64,000 nucleotides of DNA from Planctomycetia bacterium (GTDB lineage: Bacteria > Planctomycetota > Planctomycetia > Pirellulales > UBA1268). A model generated the notes under the pieces. That model worked only from the letters and a program-made list of their open reading frames with translations. It was not told the origin of the DNA and did no database searches. The position numbers and the translations under genes were made by a program. Of this stretch, positions 3,939-37,450 are shown in pieces (the stretch's first letter is position 1; every line of letters starts with the position of its first letter). Location of the stretch: positions 50,170 through 114,169 of the forward strand of contig JBAXUY010000002.1 in assembly GCA_037129475.1 (NCBI GenBank), in the 5' to 3' direction.

Positions 3939-3939
3939 C

Positions 3940-4440: not shown

Positions 4441-4493
4441 GTCATCAGGCCGGCGTGCACGCGAGGCCGTCGGCACGGGAAGGAAGCGAGCGA

Positions 4494-5783
4494 GTGGCCG
4501 GCAGACGCAGGGTGGTGATCACTGGAATGGGGCTCGTCACGCCGCTCGGCGTGCGCGTGGAGGAACTCTGGAAGAATCTCATGGCCGGCGCCTCGGGCGT
4601 GGGCCTGACCACCGTCTTCGACGCCTCGCGGTTTCCCACGAAGATCTCGGCCGAGGTTCGCAACTGGGACATCACCGACGAGGGGCAGGACGCCAAGCAC
4701 TGGCACTTCTGCGGTCGGCATACGAAGTTCGCTGCGGGTGCGGCCCTCCAGGCGATGCGTGATGCCGGCTTGGAGAAGGGCCTGCCCGCCGATCCCACAC
4801 GGCTCGGCGTGTATCTCGGCAGCGGCGAGGGGCAGCAGGATTTCGATTCCTTCACGAGCATGATGATGGCCGCGATCTCGGGCGACACGCTCGACGTGGC
4901 CAAGTTCACGAAGCTCGGCCTCGAGACGCTCCATCCGCTCTCCGAAGTGGAGCAGGAGCCGAACATGCCCGCCGGCCACCTCGCCGGCATGTTCGACGCC
5001 CAGGGTCCGAATCTCAACTGCCTCACGGCCTGTGCCGCGTCGAGCCAGGCGATCGGCGAGGCGGCCGAGCTCGTGCGCCGCGGCGACGCCGACGTGATGC
5101 TCTCCGGCGGCACGCACTCGATGATCCATCCCTTCGGCGTGACGGGCTTCAACCTGCTCACGGCCCTCTCCACCCGCAACGACGAGCCGACGCGGGCGAG
5201 TCGTCCCTTCGACAACGAGCGAGACGGCTTCGTGCTCGGTGAGGGGGCCGCGATGGTGGTGCTCGAGGAGCTCGAGCATGCGAAGAAACGGGGCGCGAAG
5301 ATCCACGGTGAACTGCTCGGCTACGGGTCGACGGCCGACGCCTACCGGATCACCGACACACATCCCGAGGGCCGTGGGGCCGCCGCCTGCATCACGATGG
5401 CGCTCAAGGACGCCGGCCTCGGCACGCACGACATCCACTACATCAACGCCCACGGCACGAGCACCGACGTCAACGACAAGGTCGAGACGCTCGCCATCAA
5501 GAAGGTGTTCGGGGAGCACGCCTACAAGATCCCCGTGTCGAGCACGAAGAGCATGATGGGACACCTGATCGCGGCCGCTGGCGCCACCGAACTGATCGTC
5601 TGCCTGCTGGCGATCCGCGACGGCATGCTGCCGCCGACGATCAACTACGAACATCCCGACCCCAACTGCGACCTCGACTACGTGCCGAACAAGTCGCGCC
5701 CGGGGAAGTGCGACCGCGCCCTCTCCAATAGCTTCGGGTTCGGCGGCCAAAACATCGCGCTGATCGTGGGCCGCTACGCGTAG
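4494..5783 (+). CDS. fabF: Beta-ketoacyl-ACP synthase II-like condensing enzyme
   Basis: Motifs: RRVVITGMGLVTPLG, active-site Cys in LTACAASSQAIGEA, NAHGTSTDVND, SSTKSMMGHLIAAAGA, NSFGFGGQN. Start placed at the GTG at 4494 after GGAAGGAAG. The GTG at 4437 (GTGA overlap with the upstream stop) or 4365 are alternatives. Confidence 0.9.
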   Translation: MAGRRRVVITGMGLVTPLGVRVEELWKNLMAGASGVGLTTVFDASRFPTKISAEVRNWDITDEGQDAKHWHFCGRHTKFAAGAALQAMRDAGLEKGLPADPTRLGVYLGSGEGQQDFDSFTSMMMAAISGDTLDVAKFTKLGLETLHPLSEVEQEPNMPAGHLAGMFDAQGPNLNCLTACAASSQAIGEAAELVRRGDADVMLSGGTHSMIHPFGVTGFNLLTALSTRNDEPTRASRPFDNERDGFVLGEGAAMVVLEELEHAKKRGAKIHGELLGYGSTADAYRITDTHPEGRGAAACITMALKDAGLGTHDIHYINAHGTSTDVNDKVETLAIKKVFGEHAYKIPVSSTKSMMGHLIAAAGATELIVCLLAIRDGMLPPTINYEHPDPNCDLDYVPNKSRPGKCDRALSNSFGFGGQNIALIVGRYA

Positions 5784-5792
5784 GCGCCGTCT

Positions 5793-5838
5793 GGCACGCT
5801 TCCCGCGTGCCGTTTGTGGGGCAAGCGTCCCGCTTGCC
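5793..5838 (+). terminator. Two tandem hairpins after the fabF-like gene
   Basis: GGCACGC-TTCCC-GCGTGCC (5793..5811) and GGCAAGC-GTCCC-GCTTGCC (5820..5838), each followed by GTTYGTG. The C:G to A:T change between copies is compensated. They begin 10 nt after the stop. Confidence 0.4.
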
Positions 5839-5943
5839 GTTCGTGAGCCCCCCAGTCTGCCCAGCCTCGCGCCCGCAGGGTTTTCTCAACCGGTGCGACC
5901 GATGCGGCCGATACAACCCCTGAACCCTCAGGGAACCAGACCC

Positions 5944-6381
5944 ATGAAACGCGCCACCGGGCTTCTTTTGGCTGTCGCCGTGATCGGCATGTCGAGCGGC
6001 TGCTCGATCATCGACCGGCTCTTTCTCCTCAACACCGACGGCCCCTACGGCCACCACGCCCAGGGTGGCGGCGGATGCCGCGACGGGGCGTGCGAGAACG
6101 GCCAGTGCCAGGTCGGCGGGCCGTGCGAATCGTGCGGTCCCGGTGGCTGTCAGCCCGGCTGCCGCGACTGCGCCGCCGGCCACTGCAAGAAGCACGTCGG
6201 GCGGTATGGCGGCCTGGCCAAGCATCATCTTTCGCCCGCCGAGCGGGCGGCGCTCGCGGCCTCCGACTACGGGGCCACGCAGCCGGCCGGCCCGCCCACC
6301 GGCGCCGTCGCCTATCCGTATTACACGACCCGCGGCCCGCGCGACTTCCTCGCGAAGAACCCGCCCTCGATCGGGCCGTGA
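5944..6381 (+). CDS. Cys/Gly-rich lipoprotein, unknown function
   Basis: ORF 5893..6381 trimmed to MKRATGLLLAVAVIGMSSGC (signal peptide plus lipobox-like SSGC). Ten Cys lie in GGGGCRDGACENGQCQVGGPCESCGPGGCQPGCRDCAAGHC. C-terminal motif: YPYYTTRGPRDFLAKNPPSIGP. Confidence 0.6.
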   Translation: MKRATGLLLAVAVIGMSSGCSIIDRLFLLNTDGPYGHHAQGGGGCRDGACENGQCQVGGPCESCGPGGCQPGCRDCAAGHCKKHVGRYGGLAKHHLSPAERAALAASDYGATQPAGPPTGAVAYPYYTTRGPRDFLAKNPPSIGP

Positions 6382-6478
6382 TCGGGCCGCGGCCCGACTG
6401 CTCTCCTTTGCCGTGATCCAGCGCCGCCGATAGGCTTGCCGCCTGTCGGCGGTGTCGTTTTTGCAGGTGGAGGTATCC

Positions 6479-7984
6479 ATGCAGGGGAAGCAGGGCGGCG
6501 GTGTGGCGGCGGACGGTCGGCTTTCATTCACCGGCTGGCTCGTGTGCGCGATCGCGGCGATCGGGTTCGCGTTCGACATCTATGAGCTCCTGATGCTGCC
6601 GCTGATCATCAAGCCGGCGATCCAGGAGCTTTCGAAGCCGGAGATCGCGAGCCTCGTGGCGGGCGGCATGTCGCAGGCCGATGCCACGGCCCTGTGGATC
6701 CCGGGCGGCAAGAGCTACGTCGGCTGGGCGCGGACGCTGTTTTTCGTGCCGGCGATCGCCGGCGGCGTGTTCGGCCTCCTCGGCGGCTACCTCACCGATC
6801 TTCTGGGGCGCCGCCGCGTGCTCACGTTCAGCATCCTGCTCTATGCCTTCGCGGCGCTGGCGGCCGGCTTCGCCACGTCGCTGCCGCAGCTGCTCGTCTT
6901 TCGCTGCCTCGTGTTCATCGGCGTGTGCGTGGAGTTCGTGGCGGCAGTGGCGTGGCTGGCCGAGCTCTTCCCCGACCGCGAGCAGCGCGAGCGGGCCCTC
7001 GGCTGGACGCAGGCGTTTTCATCGCTCGGCGGTCTGCTCGTGGGCACGGCCAACATCCTCGCCGCGCGATTCGCCGACATCCTGCCGGCCATCCACGGCG
7101 GCCACGACGCCTGGCGCTACACGCTGATCTCGGGCGTGATCCCGGCGCTGCCGCTGATCCTCATCCGGCCGTTCCTCCCCGAAAGCCCCGTGTGGGCAGA
7201 GAAGAAGGCGGCCGGCACGCTCAAGCGGCCGAGCATCCGCGAGCTCTTCAGCCCGGCGCTCGTCCGCACGACGGTGCTCACGACGCTCGTGTTCGCGGCC
7301 AGCTACGGCATCGCGTTCGGCGCGATCCAGCAGCTGCCGCAGATCCTCGGCGGCCCGAAGGGGCATGCGGCGATTCTCGCGACCGCGAAGGCGGCGCAAG
7401 ACGAGGCCGTCGCCGCTGCGGAGCAGGCGGGCAAGCCCGCGTTGCCAGCCGGCAAGCTCAAGAGCATCGCGGGCAATGCCACCGACGAGGCGGTGGCCGG
7501 CGTCACGATCTTCCAGGAGGTGGGTGGCCTCGTCGGCCGCGTGCTGCTGGCGTGGGCCGCGCTCCGGGTGCTGAGCCGGCGGGCGCTCCTGCGGATGTTC
7601 CAGATTCCGGCGCTCGTCGTGGTGCCGGCGCTCTTCTGGTGGATTTCCACGCAGCTCACGAATAGCGACTCGCTGCCCTGGATCAAGGCGGGCATCTTCG
7701 TGGCCGGCCTGCTCACGGTGGCCCAGTTCAGCTTCTGGGGCAACTACATCCCGCACGTCTTCCCGACGCACCTTCGCGGCACGGGCGAGAGCTTCGCGGC
7801 CAACATCGGCGGCCGCGTGCTCGGCACGGCTGCCGCCTGGCTCACGCTCACGTTCTCGGCGGCCACGCCGCCCGATCCGATGCGGATCGCCGTCGTGGGC
7901 GCGATCGTGGCCGGCCTCTATGCCCTCATGGGCGCGATCCTCACGCAGTGGCTCCCCGAGCCCGACTCCTCGCTCGAGCACTGA
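6479..7984 (+). CDS. MFS transporter
   Basis: The ATG at 6479 is preceded by GGTGGAGGT. The protein is polytopic and hydrophobic, with an MFS loop motif (GGYLTDLLGRRRVL) and 12 or more predicted helices by eye. Confidence 0.85.
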   Translation: MQGKQGGGVAADGRLSFTGWLVCAIAAIGFAFDIYELLMLPLIIKPAIQELSKPEIASLVAGGMSQADATALWIPGGKSYVGWARTLFFVPAIAGGVFGLLGGYLTDLLGRRRVLTFSILLYAFAALAAGFATSLPQLLVFRCLVFIGVCVEFVAAVAWLAELFPDREQRERALGWTQAFSSLGGLLVGTANILAARFADILPAIHGGHDAWRYTLISGVIPALPLILIRPFLPESPVWAEKKAAGTLKRPSIRELFSPALVRTTVLTTLVFAASYGIAFGAIQQLPQILGGPKGHAAILATAKAAQDEAVAAAEQAGKPALPAGKLKSIAGNATDEAVAGVTIFQEVGGLVGRVLLAWAALRVLSRRALLRMFQIPALVVVPALFWWISTQLTNSDSLPWIKAGIFVAGLLTVAQFSFWGNYIPHVFPTHLRGTGESFAANIGGRVLGTAAAWLTLTFSAATPPDPMRIAVVGAIVAGLYALMGAILTQWLPEPDSSLEH

Positions 7985-8215
7985 GGAGCACAGGATTCAG
8001 ACCGTCAGTGACCGTGGCCGACGTTGAAACGGTGACGGGCTGACGCCCGTCCTCCGTCTGGCGGCGCGGCCTTGCGGTGGAGCGTCGCGGGTTTTCGCCG
8101 GTCGGCTGGGCCGACGTGAGACGGCGTGGCAGTCGTTGATTGCGAGTCGGCGCTCCCGCGGGCTATCCTGCAGGTCGTCACCCATGAGCGGTGACCGCGT
8201 CGTGGGAGTCGATCC

Positions 8216-8782
8216 ATGAGATGGTGTGTGTGCGTCTACTGGGCTTTCATGTGGCTGGCGGTGCCGGTCGGTGGCCGGCTCACGGCCGAGGATGCGGCCC
8301 CTGCGGTCGCTGGCTCCACGCTCGAGGATCTCGACTGGATGGTCGGCGATTGGGTGCTCGTGCCGGACGACGAGGCGAAGACCAAGCAGGCGGGCGCGAT
8401 GCGGATGACGGTGCGGTGGGACGAAGGCCGCGCGTTTCTCATCCGCGAAGCCACGCTCACGCCGCCGGAGGAGTCTGGCGAGCCGGTCGTCACGCTCCAG
8501 CAACGGATCGGCTGGGATCCGCTCGTCGACCGGATCCGGTCGTGGAGCTTTTCGAGTGACGGCAGCCGGGGGGAGGCCACGTGGATTCGGGATGGCGGCT
8601 CGTGGATCGTGCGGGGCACGGCCGTGCTCCCCGATGGCACGCAGACGAGCTCCATCAATATCTACACGTTCGACGGCAAGGACCGCTGCACGTGGCGCGT
8701 CGTGCGGCCGGCGTTGGCCGCCGACGATGATCCGCCCACGCGGGCCACGTGGGTTCGCACCCCTGGGAGCACCGCCCCATGA
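8216..8782 (+). CDS. Hypothetical secreted protein
   Basis: 188 aa ORF with a hydrophobic N-terminus (MRWCVCVYWAFMWLAVPVGG) and a beta-rich body. No family recognised with confidence. Confidence 0.55.
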   Translation: MRWCVCVYWAFMWLAVPVGGRLTAEDAAPAVAGSTLEDLDWMVGDWVLVPDDEAKTKQAGAMRMTVRWDEGRAFLIREATLTPPEESGEPVVTLQQRIGWDPLVDRIRSWSFSSDGSRGEATWIRDGGSWIVRGTAVLPDGTQTSSINIYTFDGKDRCTWRVVRPALAADDDPPTRATWVRTPGSTAP

Positions 8783-9528
8783 GCATCGTGACGACGCTTC
8801 GACGCCGGCTCGCCGCAGGATGGCTGTTCCGTGTCAGCCGCTGCGTAGCCGTGGCCATCGCCATCTTCTCCACGGGTTACCCGGCGGCCGTGGCTGCCGA
8901 CGGCGCGCCCGACCGCGAAGCGTGCGATCTGGTCCGCAAGGCCGACATCATGCACGGGGCCCAGTGGCAGCGGGCGATCGCCGAACTCGGCAGTTGGCTC
9001 ACGACGCAGACCGTCTACACGCCAGCGGAAGTGCGGCGGATCAAGGTGCGGTTCAACGAGCAGGTGGCGGCGATGTCGTCGTACGAGCTCGAGTATCTGC
9101 TCGACTCGGTCGAACAGAAGATGCGGTTGCTCGATACGCCCGAGGCCCGCGACGCCAAGGCCTGGCTCGGCGAATACCTCTCGGCCATGTCCGACGCCCG
9201 GCGGGCCCGTGAGCTGCGCAACGTCCCCAACCTCCTCGACATGAACGCGGCCCAGCTCTGGGAGGAGATCCAGCGGATCGATCGGAAGCGCGGAGCGCTC
9301 CAGCAGCGTCAGCAGGGCGTGGCGGCGCGGCAGAACGCACTCGTCGATCGGGCGACGGCGAATCGCCAAGCGTCGGCCGACGCCGCGCGGGCCACGGCCG
9401 AGCGGCTCCGCGCCACCCCGGCGCAGGCGCCCGCCCGTCAGGGAGGCGGTGCACTGCCGTTCTCCGACGTGCCGCAGCGGCAGATGTCGATCGGCGTGGG
9501 GCCGATGGGCGCCTTCATTCAGATGTGA
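8779..9528 (+). CDS. Hypothetical secreted/coiled-coil protein
   Basis: The ATG at 8779 overlaps the upstream stop (ATGA). N-terminal signal-like segment VAVAIAIFSTGYPAAVAA. The C-terminal half is Gln/Arg/Ala-rich and helical. Confidence 0.5.
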   Translation: MSIVTTLRRRLAAGWLFRVSRCVAVAIAIFSTGYPAAVAADGAPDREACDLVRKADIMHGAQWQRAIAELGSWLTTQTVYTPAEVRRIKVRFNEQVAAMSSYELEYLLDSVEQKMRLLDTPEARDAKAWLGEYLSAMSDARRARELRNVPNLLDMNAAQLWEEIQRIDRKRGALQQRQQGVAARQNALVDRATANRQASADAARATAERLRATPAQAPARQGGGALPFSDVPQRQMSIGVGPMGAFIQM

Positions 9529-10774
9529 CGGGCGGCTGTGACGCGCGGCCGACGTCGAGGCACGTGAGCGTGGTATCGTCGCGCAGGTAGAGCCGCCCGG
9601 AGGCGAGGGCGGGCAGGGCCCGCACGGTGCCGGCGAGCGGCCGGGCGCGGGCGAGGATCGTGACGCCCGCCGGAGTCGCGGTCATGAGCACGAGGTCGCC
9701 ATCGGTCTTCGCGGCGAGCAGTTTGCCGTCGGCGGCGACGAGCGTGCCGTAGCCGAAGTTCGCCTCGCGCCACGCCGCGCGACCGGTGCCGAGATCGACG
9801 CACACGAGATCGGCCGGCGGAAGATCGTCGCGGCCGTCGATGCCATAGGCATGGCCTCCGCTCACGATCGGCGTGCAGTATTGGGTGGCGAGCGCGTCGG
9901 CTCCCTCCCAGCGTTTCGTGAAGCCCGTCGCGTCGAACGTCGCGCACACCGAGCCGATGCCATACGAGGCCGTGACGAGGAGTCGGCCGTCGGGCAGGAC
10001 GACCGGCGTGGCGGCGTTGACCGTCGGTCCGCGCTGGCCGAAGGGAAACTGCCAGCGGATCGCCCCCGATTCGGGGTCGAGAAGCAGGCAGGCGTAGCGC
10101 GTGACCATGAGCACGTGGGGCGTGCCGGCGATCGTGACGGCGACGGGGGCCGCGTAGCTCGCGGGCTCGGCGGTTTTCGTCCATACGGTGTCGCCCGTCG
10201 CCAGGGAAAACGCCACGATCCCCGCCTCGGACCGCGAACCACCCACGTTCACGATCACGTGATCGGCCACGACGAGTGGCGTCGAGCCGGCGCCGAAATA
10301 GCCCTCGGGGGCGCGGAAGTCGCGATGCGTGTCGCGGAGCCAGAGCCGCTTGCCCGTGGCGGCGTCGACACAGCGCAGCGCGCCCTGCGCACCGAACGCG
10401 ATCACGCGGCCGTCGTGGACGAGTGGCACACAGAGCGGCCCGTCGCCGCCACCCACCTGCGGCGCGAACGACGTCGGCTGCTCATCGGCCCAGAGTGATT
10501 CACCCGTGGCGGGATCGAGCGCTTCGAGCACCTCGGCGTCGGCGACGCGGTGCAAGAGCACCACACGGCCGCCGGCCACGGCCACGCCCGCATAGCCACG
10601 GCCCACGGGCTTCGACCACATCGCCCGCGGGCCGCCTGCGGGCCAGGTATCGGCAAGCCGCTCGTCGGCCGCGGCCACGCCGTTGCGCTCGGGCCCGAGG
10701 ATCTGCGGCCACTCGCCGGCACGGCACGCGGCCGTCGCCCACAGCACGGCGGCGAGGCAGGCCGCGGGCCTCAT
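9515..10774 (-). CDS. PQQ-like beta-propeller repeat protein (BamB-like fold)
   Basis: ORF 9515..11239 trimmed to MRPAACLAAVLWATAACRA (signal peptide) at 10774. Repeated units such as GRVVLL...ALDPATGESLW, GRVIAFGAQGALRCVDAATGKRLW and LLLDPESGAIRWQ are typical of PQQ-propeller repeats. Confidence 0.8.
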   Translation of the reverse strand: MRPAACLAAVLWATAACRAGEWPQILGPERNGVAAADERLADTWPAGGPRAMWSKPVGRGYAGVAVAGGRVVLLHRVADAEVLEALDPATGESLWADEQPTSFAPQVGGGDGPLCVPLVHDGRVIAFGAQGALRCVDAATGKRLWLRDTHRDFRAPEGYFGAGSTPLVVADHVIVNVGGSRSEAGIVAFSLATGDTVWTKTAEPASYAAPVAVTIAGTPHVLMVTRYACLLLDPESGAIRWQFPFGQRGPTVNAATPVVLPDGRLLVTASYGIGSVCATFDATGFTKRWEGADALATQYCTPIVSGGHAYGIDGRDDLPPADLVCVDLGTGRAAWREANFGYGTLVAADGKLLAAKTDGDLVLMTATPAGVTILARARPLAGTVRALPALASGRLYLRDDTTLTCLDVGRASQPPVTSE

Positions 10775-11196
10775 TCGACGAGCGTGCGCGGAGCCCGCGG
10801 CGCGTCGTCGGGCAGCGTAGGCACGGTCCAGATCACGTAGAGTCCGCAGGCGACGAGGCCGATCGCGGCATACTTGAGCCACCACGGCAGGCTGTTGAGC
10901 ACGAGGCTCGTGGCTACGACCGCGGCCACGAGGAGGATCGTGCGATACTTCACGCTCTTGCGGATACCGTGGTAGTGCTGCCAGTCGTCGAGCGTGGGGC
11001 CGAACCACTTCGAGCGGTGCAGCCAGGCGTGGATCCGCGGCGAACCGCGGTAGAAGCACCAACTCGCGAGGAGCAAAAACGGCGTAGTGGGCAGGAGCGG
11101 CAGGATCGAGCCGAGCACGGCCAGGCCGACGCACGTCCAGCCGCCCACCACGTAGAGAAAGCTCGTCAGCGGGTCGGTGGTGGGCTTGAGATCCAT
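10771..11196 (-). CDS. YbaN/DUF454 family inner-membrane protein
   Basis: 141 aa with the motif LGSILPLLPTTPFLLLASWCFYRGSPRIHAWL characteristic of DUF454. Its stop overlaps the start of the downstream propeller gene (ATGA). Confidence 0.8.
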   Translation of the reverse strand: MDLKPTTDPLTSFLYVVGGWTCVGLAVLGSILPLLPTTPFLLLASWCFYRGSPRIHAWLHRSKWFGPTLDDWQHYHGIRKSVKYRTILLVAAVVATSLVLNSLPWWLKYAAIGLVACGLYVIWTVPTLPDDAPRAPRTLVE

Positions 11197-11259
11197 GGGC
11201 GTCCAGGCCGGCGAAGCGGGTGTTCGAGCATCGTATCACGCGGACGTGCGCGGGGCTGT

Positions 11260-11288
11260 TTGTGGGAAAAACGCCGAGTTCCTATGCT
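11260..11288 (+). promoter_or_regulatory. Candidate sigma70-type promoter of fba
   Basis: TTGTGG-17 nt-TATGCT about 60 nt upstream of the ATG at 11349. GAGGAG Shine-Dalgarno at 11336..11341. Confidence 0.3.
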
Positions 11289-11348
11289 TTTGCACGGTCT
11301 GCCTGCCCGCCTGCTCGATATCCCGCCTTCGCCTGAGGAGTTTCCACC

Positions 11349-12398
11349 ATGCCGCTCGTCCCCATGCGCATCCTGCTCGACCACGCCGCCGAACATGGCT
11401 ACGGCCTCGCCGCCTTCAACGTCAACGACATGGAGCAGATCCAGGCGATCATGGAGGCGGCCAACGAGACCGACAGCCCCGTGATCGTGCAGGCCTCGCG
11501 GGGCGCGCGCAGCTACAGCCAGGACAACTACCTCCGGCATCTCATGCTCGCCGCGGCGGAACTCTATCCGAAGATCCCGATCGCGATGCACCAGGACCAC
11601 GGCAACTCGCCGGCCACCTGCCAGAGCGCGATCGACAACGGCTTCACGAGCGTGATGATGGACGGCTCGCTCAAGGAAGACGGCAAGACCCCGGCCGACT
11701 TCGACTACAACGTGAAGGTGACGAAGGAGGTCGTGGGGCTGGCCCACCGGCAGGGCGTGTCGGTGGAGGGCGAGCTCGGCTGCCTCGGGTCGCTCGAGAG
11801 CGGCGAGGGCGAGGCCGAGGACGGCCACGGCGCGAGTGGAAAACTCTCCCACGACCAACTGCTCACCGACCCCGACGAGGCGGCGCGATTCGTGGCGTCC
11901 ACCGGCGTCGACGCGCTGGCCGTGGCAATCGGCACGAGCCACGGTGCCTACAAGTTCACCCGCAAGCCCGACGGTGATGTGCTCGCGATGAAGCGGATCG
12001 AGGAGATCCACCGCAAGCTCCCCAACTGCCACCTCGTGATGCACGGCTCGTCGAGCGTGCCGCAGGATCTCCAGGACGTCATCAACAAGTACGGCGGCAA
12101 GATGCCGCAGACATGGGGCGTGCCCGTCGAGGAGATCCAGAAGGGCATCAAGCACGGCGTCCGCAAGATCAACGTCGACACCGACTGCCGCATGGCGATC
12201 ACGGGCGCGATCCGCAAGGTGCTCTTCGAGTCGCCCGAGAAGTTCGACCCGCGCGACTACCTGAAGCCGTCGCGCGAGGCGATGAAGAAGGTGTGCGGCG
12301 AGCGCATGGTGCAATTCGGTCAGGCCGGCAACGCCGGCAAGGTGAAGTGCATCACGCTGGCAGAAATGGCTGGGCGTTACGCGCGCGCCGGCTCGTGA
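11349..12398 (+). CDS. fba: Class II fructose-1,6-bisphosphate aldolase
   Basis: [38 protein letters not shown]...[14 protein letters not shown]...MHQDHG...[14 protein letters not shown]...[10 protein letters not shown]. Full-length match to the class II FBA pattern. Confidence 0.95.
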
Positions 12399-12442
12399 CT
12401 GCCCAGACCCTCTCGCTTGACGTTCGCTGCGTTGGCCGCGCG

Positions 12443-12690
12443 CCGGCTTCGGGCTCCCCATATCCCGTCGCCGGACGTTCACTGCGCCCATCCATGGGCT
12501 CCGTTCACTCGGAGTGACAGGCGCTGCGCCATCCTGGCTCCGCTGGTCACTCACGCCGGCTCCCGGGACGTGGGGAGCCCGAAGCCTCCCCCGTAGCGAC
12601 AGAGCTCCAGCTCTGTCGATCGACAGGCCTGGAGGCCCGTAGCGAACGTCCGGCGAGACGGTACGGGGTAACCCCGAGCCGGCGCACGCG
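12443..12690 (+). repeat. Composite structured intergenic element, copy A (long-range stem, embedded REP, inverted partial arm)
   Basis: The 5' arm GGCTTCGGGCTCCCCA (12445..12460) pairs with TGGGGAGCCCGAAGCC (12571..12586). It is followed by a REP unit. An inverted partial copy of the 5' arm region lies at 12644..12690. About 70 percent identical by eye to 36098..36277. Confidence 0.6.
12593..12648 (+). repeat. REP-like two-hairpin palindromic element (copy a, 3' hairpin degenerate)
   Basis: GTAGCGACAGAGCT-CC-AGCTCTGTCG-AT-CGACAGGCCTGGAGGCCCGTAGCG. Confidence 0.75.
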
Positions 12691-12771
12691 AGTTCGCTGG
12701 AATGTAGATGGCTAGCCGGTGGAAAGCTGCATTGCGGCGGGTTGCCCAGTCGCCCTATAGTCCCGCCCCTC

Positions 12772-13812
12772 ATGGACGCCCCCCGCCCCTCCGCCGACCC
12801 GACGGATGCCGACCTGCTCACGCACGGCCGGGAGATTCTCCGTGCCGAGGGAGAGGCGATCCTGCGGTCGGCGGACGCACTCGGCGATGCGTTCGCCCGC
12901 GCGGTGCGGATCGTGGCCGACTGCACCGGTAGCGTGGTGGTGACGGGCATCGGCAAGGCGGGGCTCGTGGCGCGGAAGATCTCGGCAACGCTCGCGTCCA
13001 CCGGCACGCCGAGCCACTTTCTCCATCCCGCCGAGGCGATGCATGGCGACCTCGGGGCGCTGCGGCGCGACGACGTCGTGCTCGCGCTCTCGCAGTCGGG
13101 TGAGACCGAGGAGATCGTGCGGCTCGTGCCGCACGTGGTGGCCCGCCGCGTGCGGATCGTCGCGCTCACCGGCTCGGCGCAGAGCACGCTTGGCCGTGCG
13201 GCAGACGTCGTCGTGCCGACCGGCAGCGTGCGCGAGGCGTGCACGCTCGGCCTCGCGCCCAGCACGAGCACGTCGCTGATGCTCGCCCTCGGCGACGCGC
13301 TGGCGCTCGTGACGAGCGGCCTGCGGCAGTTCACGCGTGAGGAGTTCGCGGCCCGGCATCCCGGGGGCAGTCTCGGCCGGCAGTTGATGCGCGTCGAGGA
13401 TGCGATGCGGCCGATTGCCCAGTGTCGGACGGCCCACCCGGCCGACACGGTGCGCGACGTCTTCGTACGGCCGCTGCCGGTCCGGCGCACCGGGGCGGTG
13501 ATGATCGTCGACGACGCCGGACGGCTTGCCGGCATCTTCACCGACAGCGACCTGGCCCGGCTCTTCGAACGGCGCAACGACGCGGCCCTCGACCATCCGA
13601 TCGGTCGCGTGATGACCGTCCGGCCCGCGACGATCCCGCATGGCACCCGGCTCAGCGACGCCCTCGCGATCCTCGAGGCGCGGCGCTTGAGCGAACTGCC
13701 GGTGCTCGACGGGGTGGGCCGCGTCGTCGGCCTGCTCGACATCGTCGATCTCGTCGGCATGGTGCCGCCGGAGATGGTGGATCTGCCCCTCACCACGCCC
13801 GCCGCCGCCTGA
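12772..13812 (+). CDS. kdsD: Arabinose-5-phosphate isomerase (KpsF/GutQ/KdsD family; SIS plus tandem CBS domains)
   Basis: VVVTGIGKAGLVARKISATLASTGTPSHFLHPAEAMHGDLG ... SQSGETEE, followed by CBS-like repeats. Start placed at the ATG at 12772 (the ORF track starts at the TTG at 12742). Confidence 0.9.
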   Translation: MDAPRPSADPTDADLLTHGREILRAEGEAILRSADALGDAFARAVRIVADCTGSVVVTGIGKAGLVARKISATLASTGTPSHFLHPAEAMHGDLGALRRDDVVLALSQSGETEEIVRLVPHVVARRVRIVALTGSAQSTLGRAADVVVPTGSVREACTLGLAPSTSTSLMLALGDALALVTSGLRQFTREEFAARHPGGSLGRQLMRVEDAMRPIAQCRTAHPADTVRDVFVRPLPVRRTGAVMIVDDAGRLAGIFTDSDLARLFERRNDAALDHPIGRVMTVRPATIPHGTRLSDALAILEARRLSELPVLDGVGRVVGLLDIVDLVGMVPPEMVDLPLTTPAAA

Positions 13813-13842
13813 TCAGTGGGGCTGCCGGGCACCGACCTTTCC

Positions 13843-14397
13843 ATGAAATCAGCCGCGAATCTTCACGATGCGCTCCACGCGCGGCTCGCGCAGGTGAAGC
13901 TGCTCCTTGTCGACGTCGACGGCGTGCTCACCGAGGGGGGCGTGACGTGGACGAACGAGGGGATCGAGCAGAAGACGTTCCACATCCGTGACGGCCTCGG
14001 CATCCGGCTCTGGCAGCGGGCCGGTGGCCGCACGGGAATCGTCACCGGCCGGGCGAGCCGCGTCGTGCAACTGCGGGCCGAGGAACTCGGGATCGGGATC
14101 GTGAAGCAGGGGGTCGAGGACAAGCTCGACACCACGGCGGCCATCCTCGCCGAGTGCGGTGTGTCGTGGGAGCAGACGGCCTTCGTCGGCGACGACCTCC
14201 CCGACCTCGCCGTGATGATGCGGTGCGGCGTGGGCGTGGCGGTGGCGAATGCGTGCCCCGAGGTGCTCGAGGTGGCGGCGATCGTGACCCGGCTACCCGG
14301 CGGGCAGGGGGCCGTGCGCGAGGTGATCGAGCAATTGCTCAAGGCCCGCGGCAGTTGGGAGGCGATCGTGCGCCGCTATCAGCCGCTGGCGGCCTGA
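13843..14397 (+). CDS. kdsC: KDO-8-phosphate phosphatase (HAD-IIIA, KdsC family)
   Basis: LLLVDVDGVLTEGGV ... HIRDGLGIRLWQRAG...GIVTGR ... KQGVEDKL ... AFVGDDLPDLAVM matches the KdsC pattern. ATG at 13843. Confidence 0.85.
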   Translation: MKSAANLHDALHARLAQVKLLLVDVDGVLTEGGVTWTNEGIEQKTFHIRDGLGIRLWQRAGGRTGIVTGRASRVVQLRAEELGIGIVKQGVEDKLDTTAAILAECGVSWEQTAFVGDDLPDLAVMMRCGVGVAVANACPEVLEVAAIVTRLPGGQGAVREVIEQLLKARGSWEAIVRRYQPLAA

Positions 14398-19748: not shown

Positions 19749-20303
19749 ATGCGCACGCTACTCTCGTCCGCACAACTCGCCGAGGGAATTGAACGGCTCG
19801 CGGCCGAGGTGCGCAGCGAAACGATCGAAAAACCGCTCACCGTGATCGGGGTGCTCACCGGGTCGATCATGGTCGTGGCCGACCTGATCCGGCGGCTCGA
19901 GGGGCCCGTGCAGCTCAACATGGTGTGGGCCAGCAGCTACCGCGGCACGGCCACGTCGCCCGGCCGTCTCGACCTGCGGCTTGACCTCCTGCCCGATCTC
20001 ACCGGGCACGACGTGCTCGTCGTCGACGACATTTTCGACTCCGGCCGCACGATGCAGGCGCTCATGGAGGAATTGCGGCGGCTCGGCGCCGCGCGGGTGC
20101 GATCGCTCGTGCTCCTGCGGAAGCAGGGACGGGCCGAGGTGGCGATGGAGCCCGACTTCGTGGGCTTCGACATCCCCGACGCGTTCGTCGTGGGGTATGG
20201 CCTCGATTTCGACGGACTGTGGCGGCACTTGCCGTATCTCGCGGCACTCGACGACGACGACATCGCCCGCCACACCGCAGCCACCGCCGGTGCGGGCGGA
20301 TGA
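19749..20303 (+). CDS. hpt: Hypoxanthine phosphoribosyltransferase
   Basis: VIGVLTGSIMVVADLIR ... SSYRG ... PRPP-binding site VLVVDDIFDSGRTM ... FVVGYGLDF. Confidence 0.9.
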   Translation: MRTLLSSAQLAEGIERLAAEVRSETIEKPLTVIGVLTGSIMVVADLIRRLEGPVQLNMVWASSYRGTATSPGRLDLRLDLLPDLTGHDVLVVDDIFDSGRTMQALMEELRRLGAARVRSLVLLRKQGRAEVAMEPDFVGFDIPDAFVVGYGLDFDGLWRHLPYLAALDDDDIARHTAATAGAGG

Positions 20304-21391
20304 CCGGGCAGCCGCCGAGGGCGATGCTCATGGTCGCGCGCGGGCTCGACCCCGTGGGTACCGGCCGCCAGATCGAACTCGCGGCGGAAGCATTTCGTGC
20401 CGCCGGATGGAATGTGGCACTCGCGGTGGGCACGGTGGACGGCTCCGTGCCCACGCGGCTCGCGGCACGTGGGTTCCCGGTACACCGCATCGGCTTCCGG
20501 CCCGAGTTCGATACTGCCGTGGCGCTGCGGCTTGCGGGATTGTGTCGCAGGCTGAAGCCGTCGGTGATGCACGCCTGGGGCCGATCAGCGGCGCTTTGCA
20601 CGGGCGCGATCCGGCCGCTCGGCGGCCGCGTCGCGGCTGTCGCGCATCTGGCCACGGGGCCTCGATCGCGCCGGCTCGGGTGGGCCCTCGCGCGGCTCGA
20701 CCGCGTGATCACGGTGTCGGCCGGCGTCGCGGGCCGCTGCGAAGCGGTTGGCGTGCGATCGGGCCGGATCGACATCCTGCCACCCGGCATCGACCCTGCT
20801 GAGCCGGCGGGGCTGTCGAGGGAGGAACTGGCCGCACGGCTCGGCCTCCGCACCGACACGCAGTGGACGCTGTGCGTCGCCCCGCTCACGTGGGAAGCCC
20901 GGCTCGAGCGGCTGTTGTGGGCAATCGATCAACTGGCCGTCGTTCACCGTGGCGTCGAGCACGTGCTCGTGGGGCGGGGACCGCTCGCGGCTCGGATGCA
21001 CAGAAGGGCCCGGGTGCAGCATCTCGCCGAACGGCTGCACGTCGTGCCGCACTGCGACGCCCTGCCCGATCTGGTGCGGGCCAGCCAGCTCGTCTGGCAG
21101 TCGGGCGACGTGGCCTACGGCGGTGCGATCCTCGATGCCATGGCTTGCGGCGTGCCGGCCGTCGCCGTGGCGAGTGATGCCGCGCGGCAACTGATCGCCG
21201 ACGGCGTGACGGGGCGCGTCGTGGCGGCCGACCCGGAGAGTGAGTTTCCGCGGCGGGCGTTCAACGTGCTCGAGGATGCAGAGCTGGCCACACGCTACGG
21301 CGACGCGGCACGGGTGCGTGTTGCCGGGCAGTTTTCCGCCGGGCCGGCGCTCGCGCGGCACGTCGAGGCGGTGGAACGGCTGGTGGCGTAG
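20300..21391 (+). CDS. Glycosyltransferase family 1 (GT4-like)
   Basis: The ATG at 20300 overlaps the hpt stop (ATGA). The N-terminal Rossmann half reads LMVARGLDPVGTGRQIELAAEAFRAAGWNV. The C-terminal half carries a GT1-type EX7E-like region (YGGAILDAMACGVPAVAV ... LIADGVTGRVV). Confidence 0.8.
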   Translation: MTGQPPRAMLMVARGLDPVGTGRQIELAAEAFRAAGWNVALAVGTVDGSVPTRLAARGFPVHRIGFRPEFDTAVALRLAGLCRRLKPSVMHAWGRSAALCTGAIRPLGGRVAAVAHLATGPRSRRLGWALARLDRVITVSAGVAGRCEAVGVRSGRIDILPPGIDPAEPAGLSREELAARLGLRTDTQWTLCVAPLTWEARLERLLWAIDQLAVVHRGVEHVLVGRGPLAARMHRRARVQHLAERLHVVPHCDALPDLVRASQLVWQSGDVAYGGAILDAMACGVPAVAVASDAARQLIADGVTGRVVAADPESEFPRRAFNVLEDAELATRYGDAARVRVAGQFSAGPALARHVEAVERLVA

Positions 21392-21442
21392 GGACGGAGC
21401 TCCAGCTCTGTCCGTTCGACAGGCCTGGAGGCCTGTCGCTAC
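21388..21442 (+). repeat. REP-like two-hairpin palindromic element (copy b, most complete in this orientation)
   Basis: GTAGGGACGGAGCT-CC-AGCTCTGTCC-GTT-CGACAGGCCT-GG-AGGCCTGTCG-CTAC. It lies between convergent genes. The TAG of the glycosyltransferase (21389..21391) and the stop of fhcA (CTA on the plus strand, 21439..21441) are both inside it. Confidence 0.85.
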
Positions 21443-22938
21443 GCCGTCAGTGTCTGGCCTGATGGCAGAGCCTTCACCTCGCCGTCCTCGGCCACGAGCA
21501 TGCCTGCCTTGTACGCCCGGGCAGGCATCGAAAACATCCGCGCGAGATCGCTATTCGGCCGATAGAGGGTGATGTCGGCATCGGCCCCGACGCCGAGATG
21601 GCCCTTGTGCGCGAGGCCCGCGATCCGGGCGGGTGCGGCCCGCGTCACGATGCACAGTTCCTGGAGCGAGTATTCGCGGCTGATTCCGGCGAGCGGGCTT
21701 CGCTTCCGCACCGCGGGATGGATGCGAGCGATCGCCTCTCGGCGGAAGGCCTCGTCGCCCAAGAGCTGCATCAGTACGGGATACGCCGTGAAGTGGGCGC
21801 CGTTCGGATGGTCGGTCGAGAGGGCCACCCGCCACGGATCGGTGACGGTGAGAAACCACTCGAGGCCGATCGCCCACTGCCAGGCATGGATCAGGCTCTT
21901 TTCCTTGTACGCGATCGGCAGCACGCCGCAGCCACCCTCGAGATGCAGGTCGTGCGACATCCAGGGCGTGCCGGTGGCATGGGCGAGATGCTCCGCGGCG
22001 GCCGAGTCGCCCGTCATCGCCACCGTGTCGCCGAACAGGATCTGCCCGACGTCGAGCGTAAGTGTGTCATTGGCGTTGAAGTGTTCCACGAGCGGGGCGA
22101 CGCCCGACCCGAACGAGCCCTCGTCGAGATCGCCTCCTGAATAACTGTGGAACTGCACGTGGGCGAGATGGGCAGGCAGACCGTCGAACGTGCGCATCGT
22201 CTCGAGCATCGTCCGCCAGTTGCCCGGTAGTCCAAGATTCGCCGTGTGCACGTGGAGCGGATGCGGCAGGCCGATGGCCTGCACCGCTCGTGCGAGCCGG
22301 TCGAGGATCTGTCGGGGGGTGACCTGCCGGTCAGGGAGCGGCGTGTCGAGATCGTGATGGTCGCCGCGCCGACCGTGCTTCCAGAACGACGGCCCGCCCG
22401 GATTCGCCACCTTCACGGCCCAGCCCCTGCCGGCCCGCACTTTCTTGGCGAGCAGGGCCTCGCAGCGGGGCACGTCGTTGGCCGCGAGGGCGTCGAGCAT
22501 GTCGGCGTCGTCGGCCGCGAGGAGATAGATGCCCTTGTCGAGGATCGGCAGCTCGTCGAGCTCTGCGTGGGCGATCGCAGCCGCGCCGGTGGCGATCGCG
22601 GCGTCGAACACGGTGGTGTAGCCGAGGGCGGCGTAGAGGCCGCCCGTCGCGTGGATCGTGGGCACGGCGGCCGGGTGGGGAGAACGGTGGCGGGCGAGGT
22701 GGGGCGCGATCCGCCGGCCCGCGTTCACCTTCGGGCCCGCGACGTGGCTGTGGAGATCGACGCCACCCGGCATCACGACGAGCCCCGCGGCATCGACGGC
22801 AGTGAAGGCAGCCGGGTCGGTCGGTCGCCCGACGATCTTCCCGCCTTCGATCCAGATGTCAGCCACGACGCCGTCACGGTCGTTGGCCGGATCGTGGATC
22901 GTGCCACCGCGCAGGACGAACCGGTGCGTCGCGTTCAT
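21439..22938 (-). CDS. fhcA: Formylmethanofuran dehydrogenase/formyltransferase-hydrolase complex subunit A (amidohydrolase)
   Basis: ORF 21439..23301 trimmed to MNATHRFVLRGGTIHDPAN ... VVMPGGVDLHSHVAGPKVN ... LPHPLHVHTANLG ... AHLAHVQFHSY ... STDHPNG ... GADADITLY. Full-length FwdA/FhcA pattern. Confidence 0.85.
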   Translation of the reverse strand: MNATHRFVLRGGTIHDPANDRDGVVADIWIEGGKIVGRPTDPAAFTAVDAAGLVVMPGGVDLHSHVAGPKVNAGRRIAPHLARHRSPHPAAVPTIHATGGLYAALGYTTVFDAAIATGAAAIAHAELDELPILDKGIYLLAADDADMLDALAANDVPRCEALLAKKVRAGRGWAVKVANPGGPSFWKHGRRGDHHDLDTPLPDRQVTPRQILDRLARAVQAIGLPHPLHVHTANLGLPGNWRTMLETMRTFDGLPAHLAHVQFHSYSGGDLDEGSFGSGVAPLVEHFNANDTLTLDVGQILFGDTVAMTGDSAAAEHLAHATGTPWMSHDLHLEGGCGVLPIAYKEKSLIHAWQWAIGLEWFLTVTDPWRVALSTDHPNGAHFTAYPVLMQLLGDEAFRREAIARIHPAVRKRSPLAGISREYSLQELCIVTRAAPARIAGLAHKGHLGVGADADITLYRPNSDLARMFSMPARAYKAGMLVAEDGEVKALPSGQTLTA

Positions 22939-23840
22939 CGACGGCCTCCGTGCGTCTGCACGCCGATGGCCGCCAGCAACGCTCGCAGCGGTTCCACGTC
23001 GGCTGGCATGCGGATGACGGTCAGGGCCTCGCCGCGGCGTGTGATGGCATCTGCGACGGCCTCGGCGAGCCGGCCGACGGCGACGACGCAGTCGACCTCG
23101 CCCCGTTCCACGAGCCGGCGGGCCGAAGCTTCGCCGGGAAGGAACCGGCCGCCATCGCGATCGGCCCGCGCGATCGCCCCGGCGGCACCGTACCGCCACG
23201 TGCACGTCGCAGCCGCAGCGGCATGGTCGGCCGCCCCGAGGGGAATCTCGAAGGCAGGTTTTGCATGGGCGATCTCGCGGACGAGATGCGTGATGGCCCA
23301 CGGCTCGAGCCCGAGCGCATCGGCCGAATCATCGGTCACGAGCGCCACACACGAGGCCTTCGCGATCGCCGCCCGTGCGGCGACGCATGCCTCGACCAAC
23401 GGGCCGCGCGCCGTGGGCGGCTCACCGCCGCGCACGAGATGCTGGAGAAGCCGCGCCGCTTCGACCGACGACGCCGGTGTCGGCGGCATCCGCAGAACCA
23501 CGGCACGCTGCGGCAGGAGTGCGGCGACCGCCGGATGCGTGGCAGCCGGGTCGCAGCCCCAGAGGATCACGAGATCGGCGCGATCACGCATTTCTTCGAC
23601 ATCGGCCGTCACGGCCCCGGCCCGGGCGATCGTCGGGCCTGCCGGCCGATCGACGTCGGCTGCCCCGAAGTCGATCGCCGCCCCGAGGGCCTCGGCGAGG
23701 TCGCAGGCCGCCCGGATGGCTTCGGCTGATGCGCCGCGCAGCCCCGTGAGAAGCACACGGCGGGCGTGTGTGAGTTGCGCGGCGCGCCGGTCGGGGTCGC
23801 CCGTGGGAAGCGGAGCCTGAGTCGCCGCGCGCGGCATCAT
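22935..23840 (-). CDS. fhcB: Formylmethanofuran dehydrogenase subunit B-like protein (FhcB/FwdB family)
   Basis: ORF 22935..24131 trimmed to the ATGATG at 23840. It shows the FwdB-like pattern LLTGLRGASAEAIRAACDLAEALGAAIDFG...VTADVEEMRDRADLVILWGCDP. ATGA overlaps link it to both neighbours. Confidence 0.6.
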   Translation of the reverse strand: MMPRAATQAPLPTGDPDRRAAQLTHARRVLLTGLRGASAEAIRAACDLAEALGAAIDFGAADVDRPAGPTIARAGAVTADVEEMRDRADLVILWGCDPAATHPAVAALLPQRAVVLRMPPTPASSVEAARLLQHLVRGGEPPTARGPLVEACVAARAAIAKASCVALVTDDSADALGLEPWAITHLVREIAHAKPAFEIPLGAADHAAAAATCTWRYGAAGAIARADRDGGRFLPGEASARRLVERGEVDCVVAVGRLAEAVADAITRRGEALTVIRMPADVEPLRALLAAIGVQTHGGRR

Positions 23841-34330: not shown

Positions 34331-34406
34331 GTAGGGACAGGGCTCCAGCCCTGTCCACCGACCACGTAGGGACGGAGCTCCAGTTGGCCTGGAGGCCTGT
34401 CGCGAC
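34331..34406 (+). repeat. REP-like element (copy c, rearranged/duplicated)
   Basis: GTAGGGACAGGGCT-CC-AGCCCTGTCC is a perfect 10 bp stem carrying an A>G and T>C compensated pair relative to other copies. It is followed by GTAGGGACGGAGCTCCAG fused to TTGGCCTGGAGGCCTGTCGCGAC. It lies in the divergent HIT/scpA intergenic region. Confidence 0.75.
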
Positions 34407-36059: not shown

Positions 36060-36097
36060 AACGGGCTTCAGCGTGGCTTGGCCTCGACGCGCCCAGT

Positions 36098-36277
36098 CCG
36101 GCTCGGGGCTACCCATGCTCCATCGCCGGACGTTCGCCGCGGCCCTCCCGGCCTCGGCTCACTCGACTTCGACTGCGCTTCGGCATCCTGCCTGCGCTTG
36201 TCTGCATACGCCGGCGATTGGAGCACGGATAGCCCCGAGCCTCCCCTCTTCGTAGCGACAGAGCTCCAGTTCTGTCG
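36098..36277 (+). repeat. Composite structured intergenic element, copy B (ends in a single REP hairpin)
   Basis: The 5' arm GGCTCGGGGCTA (36100..36111) pairs with TAGCCCCGAGCC (36230..36241), the same 142 nt span as copy A. It ends with GTAGCGACAGAGCT-CC-AGTTCTGTCG (36252..36277). Confidence 0.6.
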
Positions 36278-36295: not shown

Positions 36296-37450
36296 ATGAA
36301 CGCTCCCCGCCATGCCTACGTGCACGTCCCGTTCTGTCGCCACCGGTGCGGCTATTGCGATTTCACGCTCGTGGCGGGGCGAGACGATCTGATCGAGCGG
36401 TATTTCGCGGCGCTCGCGATCGAAATCGAGCGAATCTCGAATGTGCCCGACGCGACGTCTGCTTCGGCGTGTCTGGAGCTAGACACGCTCTATCTTGGCG
36501 GCGGCACGCCTTCGCATCTCGGGCCCGACGGTCTACGGAAGCTCTTTGCATTGCTGCGCGAGCGGCTCGTGCCTGCCGCAGGGGCGGAGGTGACCGTGGA
36601 GGCGAATCCACTCGATGTGACCGGCGACTTCGTAACCGCCTGTCGCGATCTCGGCGTTACGCGCGTGAGTCTCGGGGGGCAGTCGCTCGATGCCGCCACG
36701 CTCCGGGCGCTCGACCGCGATCATGCGCCCGCCGACGTGCAGGGGGCCGTGAGCCGGCTGATCGACGCCGGCCTCGTCGTGAGCCTCGACCTGATGACGG
36801 CCGCGCCGGGGCAGACGCTCGCCGGGGCGGAAGGCGATCTGGCTGCCGCGGCTGCGCTCGACGTACAGCATGTGTCGGTCTACTGCCTCACGTGGGAGCA
36901 GGGGACGGCGTTCGAGTCGGCGCGGCGGCGGGGTGACCTCGTGCCGGCAGAGGAGTCGCTCGAGCGGGCAATGTTCGAGACGGCGATCGATCGGCTCGAG
37001 GCCGCCGGCTTCGAGCACTACGAGGTGAGCAACTTCGCCCGTTCGGGCTTCCGCTGCCGGCACAACGAGGCCTACTGGGACTGCCGGCCGTGGGAGGCGT
37101 TTGGCCCGGGAGCGGCCCGCTTCGACGGCCGGACGCGGATCACGAACCATCGCAGCACGACGACCTGGATCGCGAAGACGCTCGCGGGGGAGGATGCGAC
37201 GGGCGAGATCGACGCGATGACCGCCGAACAGGCGGCCCGGGAGCGGATCGTGGTGGGGTTGCGCCGCCGCGATGGCATCGACCGCGAGGCCTTTCACGCG
37301 GTGAGCGGGTTCGACCTCGACGTGCTGGCCGGACCGGCGATCGCCCGCTGGGTGGAGCGAGGGCTGGCGACCGACGATGGCGCGCGCGTGCGGCTCACGC
37401 GGGCGGGGCTGCTCGTGTCCGACGCGCTGTGGGCCGACGTGCTCACGTAG
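36296..37450 (+). CDS. hemW: Radical SAM heme chaperone HemW (oxygen-independent coproporphyrinogen oxidase-like)
   Basis: YVHVPFCRHRCGYCDF (CxxxCxxC) ... LYLGGGTPS ... EANP ... RVSLGGQS ... YEVSNFAR...CRHNEAYW. Confidence 0.9.
   Translation: MNAPRHAYVHVPFCRHRCGYCDFTLVAGRDDLIERYFAALAIEIERISNVPDATSASACLELDTLYLGGGTPSHLGPDGLRKLFALLRERLVPAAGAEVTVEANPLDVTGDFVTACRDLGVTRVSLGGQSLDAATLRALDRDHAPADVQGAVSRLIDAGLVVSLDLMTAAPGQTLAGAEGDLAAAAALDVQHVSVYCLTWEQGTAFESARRRGDLVPAEESLERAMFETAIDRLEAAGFEHYEVSNFARSGFRCRHNEAYWDCRPWEAFGPGAARFDGRTRITNHRSTTTWIAKTLAGEDATGEIDAMTAEQAARERIVVGLRRRDGIDREAFHAVSGFDLDVLAGPAIARWVERGLATDDGARVRLTRAGLLVSDALWADVLT

Follow-up and report, generated by a model that had tools for sequence, protein, structure and literature searches.

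The palindromic element at positions 21388-21442 of a 64,000-nucleotide stretch from a Planctomycetia bacterium (contig JBAXUY010000002.1; this whole stretch, with a G+C content of 69%, is called the window here) raises the question of what kind of DNA it belongs to and how such DNA spreads. The original prediction, made from the sequence alone, placed it in a family of two-hairpin elements of about 54 bp with GTAG...CTAC termini at seven intergenic loci, and likened the family both to repetitive extragenic palindromes (REPs) and to miniature inverted-repeat transposable elements (MITEs). In this study, the elements are most likely GTAG-tagged REPs arranged in doublets that resemble REPINs (REP doublets forming hairpins), that is, non-autonomous mobile DNA that depends on a REP-associated tyrosine transposase (RAYT). 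They have a defined anatomy and a tag, their pairing is strand-specific, their copy number is high, they turn over between relatives, and they leave no target-site duplications. Every testable defining feature of GTAG-class REPs and of REPIN-like doublets was found. In other words, they are a known kind of bacterial miniature mobile DNA, and what is new here is the family in an uncultured planctomycete.

Anatomy of the repeat unit and its copies in the window

To count the units, the window was searched with two 22-nt hairpin patterns at up to 3 mismatches, and 100 dinucleotide-preserving shuffles served as the control. The two patterns gave 6 and 7 matches in the window and none in the 100 shuffles. 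In total, 13 intact and two partial 26-nt units were found, all at the seven predicted loci, with 0 expected by chance. All seven loci are intergenic, and a looser scan at up to 6 mismatches, tags included, found no further copies of this family (family 1) in the 64-kb window. The copies are as follows; coordinates without a contig label are window positions, and the two stem variants of the unit, A and B, are defined below.

Locus 1, 12593-12646, plus strand: REP doublet, A then inverted B, with a degenerate 3' tag (GTAGCGAA for GTCGCTAC); it matches the patterns, and a doublet also occupies the orthologous site in the related locus L004
Locus 2, 21388-21442, plus strand: canonical REP doublet, GTAG-A, a 5-nt spacer and B-CTAC; its TAG and CTA are the stops of both convergent genes
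Locus 3, 34331-34356, plus strand: single REP unit, an A variant with a compensatory GG/CC stem (pattern match)
Locus 3, 34366-34406, plus strand: internally deleted doublet, in which the tag, left arm and loop of A are fused to the loop, right arm and tag of B; its tag is GCGAC
Locus 4, 36252-36277, plus strand: lone REP A unit whose stem holds one G.T, located 10 nt past the 3' end of a longer repeat, LE
Locus 5, 37447-37500, plus strand: REP doublet; its GTAG is the hemW stop, and its terminal CTAC is mutated to CTGC
Locus 6, 49343-49454, plus strand: REP cluster (units A, B and B, then a truncated B); pntB takes its stop from the final CTAC
Locus 7, 53894-53947, minus strand: reversed REP doublet (B then inverted A) with both stems perfect

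The element at locus 2 reads GTAG-GGACGGAGCT-CC-AGCTCTGTCC-GTT-CGACAGGCCT-GG-AGGCCTGTCG-CTAC. The predicted sequences are present at all seven loci, including the rearranged locus 34331-34406 (an intact A-variant unit plus the internally deleted doublet), the first hairpin alone at 36252-36277 (a lone A unit) and the inverted copy at 53894-53947 with its two perfect stems. Other parts of the prediction hold only with amendments. The second hairpin at 49343-49454 was described as triplicated; A, B and B are there, but the third B is truncated. The GTAG...CTAC termini apply to the copies generally, but not to the degenerate 3' tag of copy 1 or to copy 5, where CTAC is CTGC. Similarly, the seven loci stand, but the copies at 37447 and 49343 are not independent, as they lie in one 172-bp direct repeat. 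A CRISPR-like array was considered for 49343-49454 and rejected: the region has only three and a half units and no regular-length unique spacers, and its units are dispersed elsewhere.

Each 26-nt unit opens with an unpaired GTAG tag at its 5' end; the other 22 nt form a palindrome whose 10-bp stem closes on a 2-nt CC loop. Read from its own tag, the consensus GTAG-S-GACRG-(AG/GC)CT-CC-AG(CT/GC)-CTGTC-S covers both hairpins. The two kinds of stem differ at the variable positions, where variant A (..AGCT/AGCT..) has AG/CT and variant B (..GCCT/AGGC..) has GC/GC. Since both hairpins share one plan, the two-hairpin element is one REP in two variants placed back to back. Both predicted hairpins are present, but they are not distinct from each other, being variants of the same REP in opposite orientation. 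In the doublet, A and B converge (A→←B), with the tags pointing outward, 1-5 nt between the palindromes and a total length of 54 bp.

To place these copies in a wider sample, related DNA was scanned, one genome per species, with the 20-nt A core alone and the tag excluded. At least 56 loci were returned; at least 50 of them are contigs of Planctomycetaceae C1_MAG_00073, and the rest come from other planctomycete metagenome-assembled genomes (MAGs). The window and these A-core loci (342 kb), about 406 kb in all, formed the census set and hold 186 family-1 units, a high density, so the further copies to be looked for in relatives do exist. With the tag absent from the query, 83% (155) of the 186 units carry GTAG as the 5' tag, and 7% (13) carry GTGG. 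Among their arrangements are 53 A/B doublets with outward tags and 32 lone units, next to a few arrays; isolated pairs with inward tags are absent. The junction between the two cores is GATC in 17 of 25 exact doublets. As in REPINs, doublets predominate (53 versus 32 lone units) and singlets are decay products; decay is visible in the doublet at 34366-34406, with its internal deletion, and in degraded units of the related loci L058 and L060.

Pairing was assessed on 52 distinct tagged sequences, collected with a pattern in which the inner 10 nt were unconstrained, and on 500 shuffles. In the observed set, 93% of stem cells are paired versus 85% in the shuffles, and three of the ten stem pairs are altered on both sides; the observed values were reached by none of the 500 shuffles. 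At one stem pair, 29 sequences have A-T and 20 have G.T, whereas A.C turns up in just 2. Because a G.T on the tag strand is an A.C on its complement, it is on the tag-bearing strand that the fold is selected. The predicted selection on structure is thus borne out by compensatory stem changes that keep the pairing, and most of the covariation traces back to a few subfamilies and not to numerous independent events. The folding check that had been proposed gave a similar result, as the doublets fold far better than shuffles both as RNA (-38 to -44 kcal/mol, z = -4.3 to -7.0) and as DNA (z = -5.5 to -7.2). At loci 5 and 7, one long hairpin is the minimum-energy structure of the doublet; at locus 2, it is a pair of hairpins that the tags close.

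Turnover at shared sites and the ends of neighboring genes

To compare occupancy between genomes, three sets of related loci were aligned with the window. Locus L004 of C1_MAG_00073 is syntenic with window positions 5910-13988 at 81-87% identity and carries a doublet at the locus-1 position. The loci L058/L059 (HemW 90% identity) and L060/L061 (HemW 87%) are collinear with the window at 79-93% nucleotide identity, and their alignment with it is interrupted precisely at the REP loci. With up to 3 mismatches allowed, no family-1 unit was found in L058/L059 or L060/L061 except one decayed B. A second, GTGG-tagged REP family (family 2; GTGG-GGCAASCG-TCC-CGSTTGCC) is present in these relatives at four of the five shared sites, namely between HIT and scpA, upstream of hemW, at the hemW 3' end and downstream of rpsI. 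At the fifth shared site, the pntB 3' end, L060 has decayed family-1-like REPs and not family 2. The family-2 features are:

5789-5838, plus strand: two tandem family-2 units, one of them degenerate, GTGG-GGCAAGCG-TCC-CGCTTGCC
L058, 7885-7935, 9569-9591 and 11171-11231: family 2
L060, 4943-4965 and 11569-11660: family 2

Between HIT and scpA, the genomes align in the flanks as far as the outer edges of the tags and differ solely in the block from tag to tag. The occurrence of a second REP family at the exact same intergenic sites indicates that the elements turn over as units. Judged from this block and from the synteny breaks at the REP loci, the doublet appears to behave as the unit of gain and loss. 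In addition, decayed family-1 remnants lie beside hemW in the relatives. The hemW TAG in L058 is that of a remnant tag; in L060 (6360-6400), the hemW stop TAG is GAG, and the open reading frame (ORF) runs 8 codons into the REP remnant. Collectively, these remnants indicate that family 1 is old in the clade and was lost or replaced in some lineages. The A core was not found in viral contigs, and a tRNA/tmRNA scan found none. A methylotroph as the source of the window, which fhcA had suggested at first, is ruled out by the 100% identity of HemW to a protein of a Planctomycetia MAG and by the synteny with planctomycete MAGs.

The genes around the seven loci of the window are:

Locus 1: class-II aldolase gene and kpsF, co-directional
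Locus 2: genes for a GT4 glycosyltransferase (20219-21391) and an FhcA/FwdA-type protein (21439-23301; TIGR03121 match, 549 bits), convergent, with both stops inside the tags
Locus 3: HIT and scpA, divergent starts
Locus 4: RNase Z-like gene and hemW (36296-37450)
Locus 5: hemW (stop in GTAG) and a giant PATR/PEP-CTERM gene
Locus 6: hemW pseudo-fragment and the PntB gene (49451-50881; stop in CTAC)
Locus 7: downstream of rpsI

The neighbors are co-directional at three loci, and locus 3 separates divergent starts. The intergenic position of the copies agrees with the prediction, but of the three loci said to lie between convergent gene ends only two are strictly convergent, locus 6 being so only relative to the hemW pseudo-fragment. 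The stop codon is the TAG of GTAG or the CTA of CTAC in four genes, those for the glycosyltransferase, the FhcA-type protein, HemW and PntB, exactly as had been proposed. The giant gene was also correctly described as reading into copy 5: this minus-strand ORF extends 18 codons into it because the terminal CTAC (37497-37500) is mutated to CTGC, and 18 REP-encoded codons are added after the PEP-CTERM signal of the giant protein. A stop at this CTAC position is kept in the duplicate copy and in the L058 ortholog.

In the window, the giant gene consists of two overlapping minus-strand ORFs (37443-44033 and 43934-48691; 2196 and 1585 aa). Both are full of PATR repeats, and the L058 ortholog is one gene of 2259 aa. 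This split is a frameshift, an assembly error or a case of two genes.

The direct repeat that holds copies 5 and 6 has two parts:

37328-37498, plus strand: 172-bp direct repeat, copy one, with the hemW 3' end and the doublet
49224-49395, plus strand: 172-bp direct repeat, copy two, carrying the hemW 3' pseudo-fragment

The two parts are 94% identical, comprise the last 120 bp of hemW plus the doublet, and bracket the 11-kb giant-gene region. The giant gene is present in L058/L059 and absent in L060/L061 (an 11-kb indel). These observations suggest REP-associated recombination or gene conversion at the hemW/giant-gene region. A 142-aa gene that precedes pntB in the relatives is missing from the window.

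Mosaics with longer repeats

Copies 1, 4 and 7 sit within larger multi-copy repeats, copies 1 and 4 with LE and copy 7 with R3 and R4:

12438-12592, plus strand: LE, a long structured repeat of about 150 nt, whose 3' end abuts the GTAG of the copy-1 doublet
12643-12690: partial inverted LE copy, after the copy-1 doublet
36093-36250, plus strand: second LE copy, abutting the lone REP A of locus 4
53725-53827, plus strand: R3, about 100 nt, multi-copy in a related MAG
53829-53893, plus strand: R4, a 65-nt repeat abutting the B side of the copy-7 doublet, with many copies in a related MAG

The junction between R4 and the doublet recurs in L004, L014, L035, L003 and L113, and LE is also found in L002-L054, L058, L060 and L113. 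LE folds into a 20-bp outer stem with inner hairpins; 95% of its cells are paired, its G.U pairs lie on one strand, and 12 of 35 pairs show compensatory changes, a covariation matched by none of 500 shuffles. No Rfam 15 model matched at the gathering score anywhere in the window, and around locus 1 (12380-12720) there was also no match at E <= 1. Among the 28 LE copies with an intact 3' end, 21 have the GTAG side of a REP no more than 40 nt downstream, with A and B about equally frequent. Since LE, R3 and R4 recur beside doublets with fixed junctions, the family forms mosaics like the bacterial interspersed mosaic elements (BIMEs), in which REPs and other conserved intergenic motifs stand in a recurrent arrangement.

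These mosaics raise the possibility that a larger BIME-like unit (LE of about 150 nt, the doublet and the 65-nt R4) is what moves or is selected, with the REPs as one of its modules. The 21 LE copies joined to a GTAG side argue for it, as do the many doublets placed between inverted LE ends or between LE and R4, the LE-doublet-R4 junctions shared by L003, L004, L113 and L014, and the conserved fold that LE has of its own. However, the doublets at loci 2, 5 and 6 of the window have unique flanks with neither LE nor R4, and LE occurs without a REP in 7 of the 28 copies. At locus 3, only the tag-bounded REP cluster differs between genomes. Moreover, the co-occurrence is inflated because the loci were chosen for containing REP A. 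On balance, we regard this larger unit as rather unlikely to be the mobile one.

A related and quite doubtful idea is that the REP doublets are the hinge of an undescribed composite, in which LE, a module structured as RNA or as single-stranded DNA, attaches specifically through its 3' end to the GTAG side of a REP, and differently tagged REP families replace one another in shared intergenic sites through exchange from tag to tag, not through random insertion. If so, there would be a site-specific replacement chemistry carried out by RAYT-type enzymes in Planctomycetes, as well as a new family of mobile structured modules (RNA or DNA) in this phylum. The attached 150-nt structured element is the only part of the system that may go beyond the routine.

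Mobilization, alternatives and relation to known systems

For the favored reading, in which tagged REP doublets are moved by a RAYT, the proposed course of events is the following. A single-copy RAYT, a Y1 HUH enzyme of the IS200/IS605 superfamily of insertion sequences (IS), would be encoded elsewhere in the genome. It would recognize the hairpin on one DNA strand while this strand is single-stranded, cleave at the GTAG tag, and excise or copy units without target-site duplication. Doublets inserted near gene ends would become transcribed and would then probably serve, secondarily, as 3' hairpins in mRNA end protection or termination, and the TAG of an inserted tag could become the stop codon of a gene. 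We infer the RAYT dependence in this genome and any role at the RNA level. The tag, the strand-specific fold, the lone units and the tandem arrays fit the substrates of Y1 HUH transposases, whose action on single-stranded hairpins is described for the E. coli RAYT and REPs (PMC3733652, PMC3116915, PMC5581495). At 25 doublets no target-site duplication was found, as the matching flank lengths of 0, 1 and 2 nt (22, 2 and 1 doublets, respectively) are the same as in shuffled flank pairs. Of the label "REP/MITE-like", the first half is kept, on account of the tag, the outward doublet, the conserved pairing, the copy number and the occupancy differences, and the classical MITE is dropped.

Transposase genes were sought near the repeats. 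A metagenome scan with the B core gave 120 loci (L062-L181) with a G+C content of 45-71%. Over this G+C range, metagenome contigs widely carry the B-type core GACAGGCCTCCAGGCCTGTC together with a GT[AG]G tag; most of the 120 loci have lone GT[AG]G-tagged units, and the same A/B heterodimer occurs in several contigs of 60-71% G+C. Y1 transposases are encoded on three of the 120 loci, L144, L140 and L087. In L144, a full RAYT (3721-4545) is flanked by GTAG-GACAGGCGT... REPs, and a B-core REP lies 120 bp away. In L140 (69% G+C), a B-core doublet is present, and a RAYT C-terminus directly adjoins a tandem array of GTAG-GAYAGGCT REPs (features at 1665-1706 and 3575-3798), a REP type also seen at the pntB end in L060. 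In L087, the Y1 transposase is about 5.8 kb from the B-core unit, and no flanking REP was found. A homologue search with the 48-aa fragment of the L140 RAYT found nothing, and the matches of a two-sequence RAYT profile were dominated by the Acidobacteria-like L144 protein. These neighborhoods link the REP superfamily to RAYTs, whereas for family 1 of this genome the link is indirect and points to no particular gene. The distribution of B cores and RAYTs suggests a REP/RAYT system shared between phyla or, alternatively, convergence.

Several observations weigh against a RAYT-dependent doublet. With a profile of 17 published RAYT/TIRYT sequences, neither the window nor 60 related loci (460 kb) yielded a gene for a RAYT or any other Y1 transposase. 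Likewise, an E. coli RayT phmmer search and an HUH...Y..NP regular expression had no match in the window or the genome loci, and the ORFs between neighboring REPs are not transposase-like. The relatives of the L144 RAYT are labelled Acidobacteria, and the REPs that flank the RAYTs of L140 and L144 are sister types, not proven A/B units of family 1. Several copies are old and positionally conserved, with locus 1 common to L004 and REP A remnants upstream of hemW in L060, so that current activity is unproven. Doublet orientation shows no significant relation to the sign of the GC skew (p = 0.15). Finally, many doublets are flanked by LE or R4, and the truly mobile unit may for this reason exceed 54 bp.

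Another explanation is that the elements are structural signals selected by the host and spread by recombination or gene conversion, not by transposition. Candidate roles are stabilizers or terminators at transcript 3' ends, translation-coupled regulators at stop codons, and binding sites for proteins or gyrase. REPs of E. coli reportedly stabilize mRNA and, near a stop codon, reduce translation. In the window, four genes end exactly in a tag, so that the hairpins lie in 3' untranslated regions, and convergent genes are separated by an element at two loci. Conservation of some sites holds across a nucleotide divergence of 13-18%, and the 172-bp duplication of hemW and its REP is a case of recombination or conversion at REPs. 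However, no U-tract follows any copy and the terminator scan misses them all; a role as terminator also makes no sense for the locus between divergent starts or for the three that are upstream of genes. The unpaired GTAG, the strict outward doublets and the wholesale replacement of one family by another are hallmarks of transposase substrates and not of hairpins in general. We consider host signals an improbable explanation of the family as a whole. The narrower reading as intrinsic terminators was rejected, as no T-run follows the hairpins of any copy and the terminator scan reports none.

That GTAG...CTAC represents the terminal inverted repeats (TIRs) of classical MITEs, moved by the DDE transposase of a full-length insertion sequence, is very improbable and was rejected: taken whole, the doublet does form an imperfect inverted repeat, about 54 bp long and with defined ends, but its flanks show no target-site duplications and look like shuffled pairs, lone units and tandem single-hairpin arrays are common, unlike under a TIR-pair mechanism, and about 1 Mb of related DNA showed no IS-like parent that ends in this way.

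Returning to tagged REPs, the closest known system is the GTAG "HH" heterodimers (Di Nocera et al. 2013, PMC3733652), for example GTAG-17 of Opitutus terrae and GTAG-20/21 of Rhodopirellula baltica. That paper describes GTAG REPs, outward heterodimers 1-5 bp apart, the donation of TAG stops and REP/RAYT pairs of R. baltica. Both systems share the unpaired GTAG (sometimes GTGG), a stem of 6-13 bp, outward tags, a spacing of 1-5 bp and two stem variants; both are mostly extragenic, often donate a TAG stop and have hosts in the Planctomycetes-Verrucomicrobia-Chlamydiae (PVC) superphylum. In contrast, the stems GACRGAGCT and GACRGGCCT do not occur in the running text of PMC3733652, the part compared. 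Relative to the systems in that text, the host here is an uncultured Planctomycetia lineage, and the frequent attachment of a 150-nt structured element is specific to the present family.

REPINs and RAYTs have been described (PMC3116915, PMC5581495), and the doublets share several features with the REPINs of Pseudomonas fluorescens and E. coli (Bertels and Rainey 2011, PMC3116915). These are likewise inverted REP pairs capable of forming hairpins, with more doublets than singlets, singlets that resemble decayed doublets, a lineage-specific population and a single-copy RAYT as the presumed mobilizer. However, the spacer here is 1-5 nt versus tens of nucleotides in P. fluorescens, and the two halves are fixed as different variants. 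Similar to E. coli BIMEs, REPs alternate with conserved intergenic motifs, and the occupancy of orthologous sites tracks the lineage-specific REP sequence, whereas the modules LE, R3 and R4 are much longer than BIME linkers and unrelated to them in sequence. The subterminal hairpins of IS200/IS605 elements also combine a single-strand hairpin with a tetranucleotide cleavage site, a Y1 HUH transposase and no target-site duplication; in contrast, no transposase lies between the hairpins here, and the copies are bare hairpins or doublets and not element ends. Finally, Correia/NEMIS and ERIC sequences are short, intergenic, transcribed, hairpin-forming repeats as well, but they have longer TIRs (with TA duplications in Correia) and lack a GTAG tag and single-hairpin units.

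Collectively, these results extend the GTAG-REP/REPIN class to an uncultured, high-GC lineage of Planctomycetia. They provide a clean natural example of REP dynamics, with two tagged families at the same sites between flanking synteny blocks that are 79-93% identical. For the host genes, the tag donates stop codons, one gene lost its stop by a single change from CTAC to CTGC, and a REP-bounded duplication sits beside an 11-kb gene indel. For annotation, recognizing these repeats prevents spurious ORFs and mis-set gene ends.

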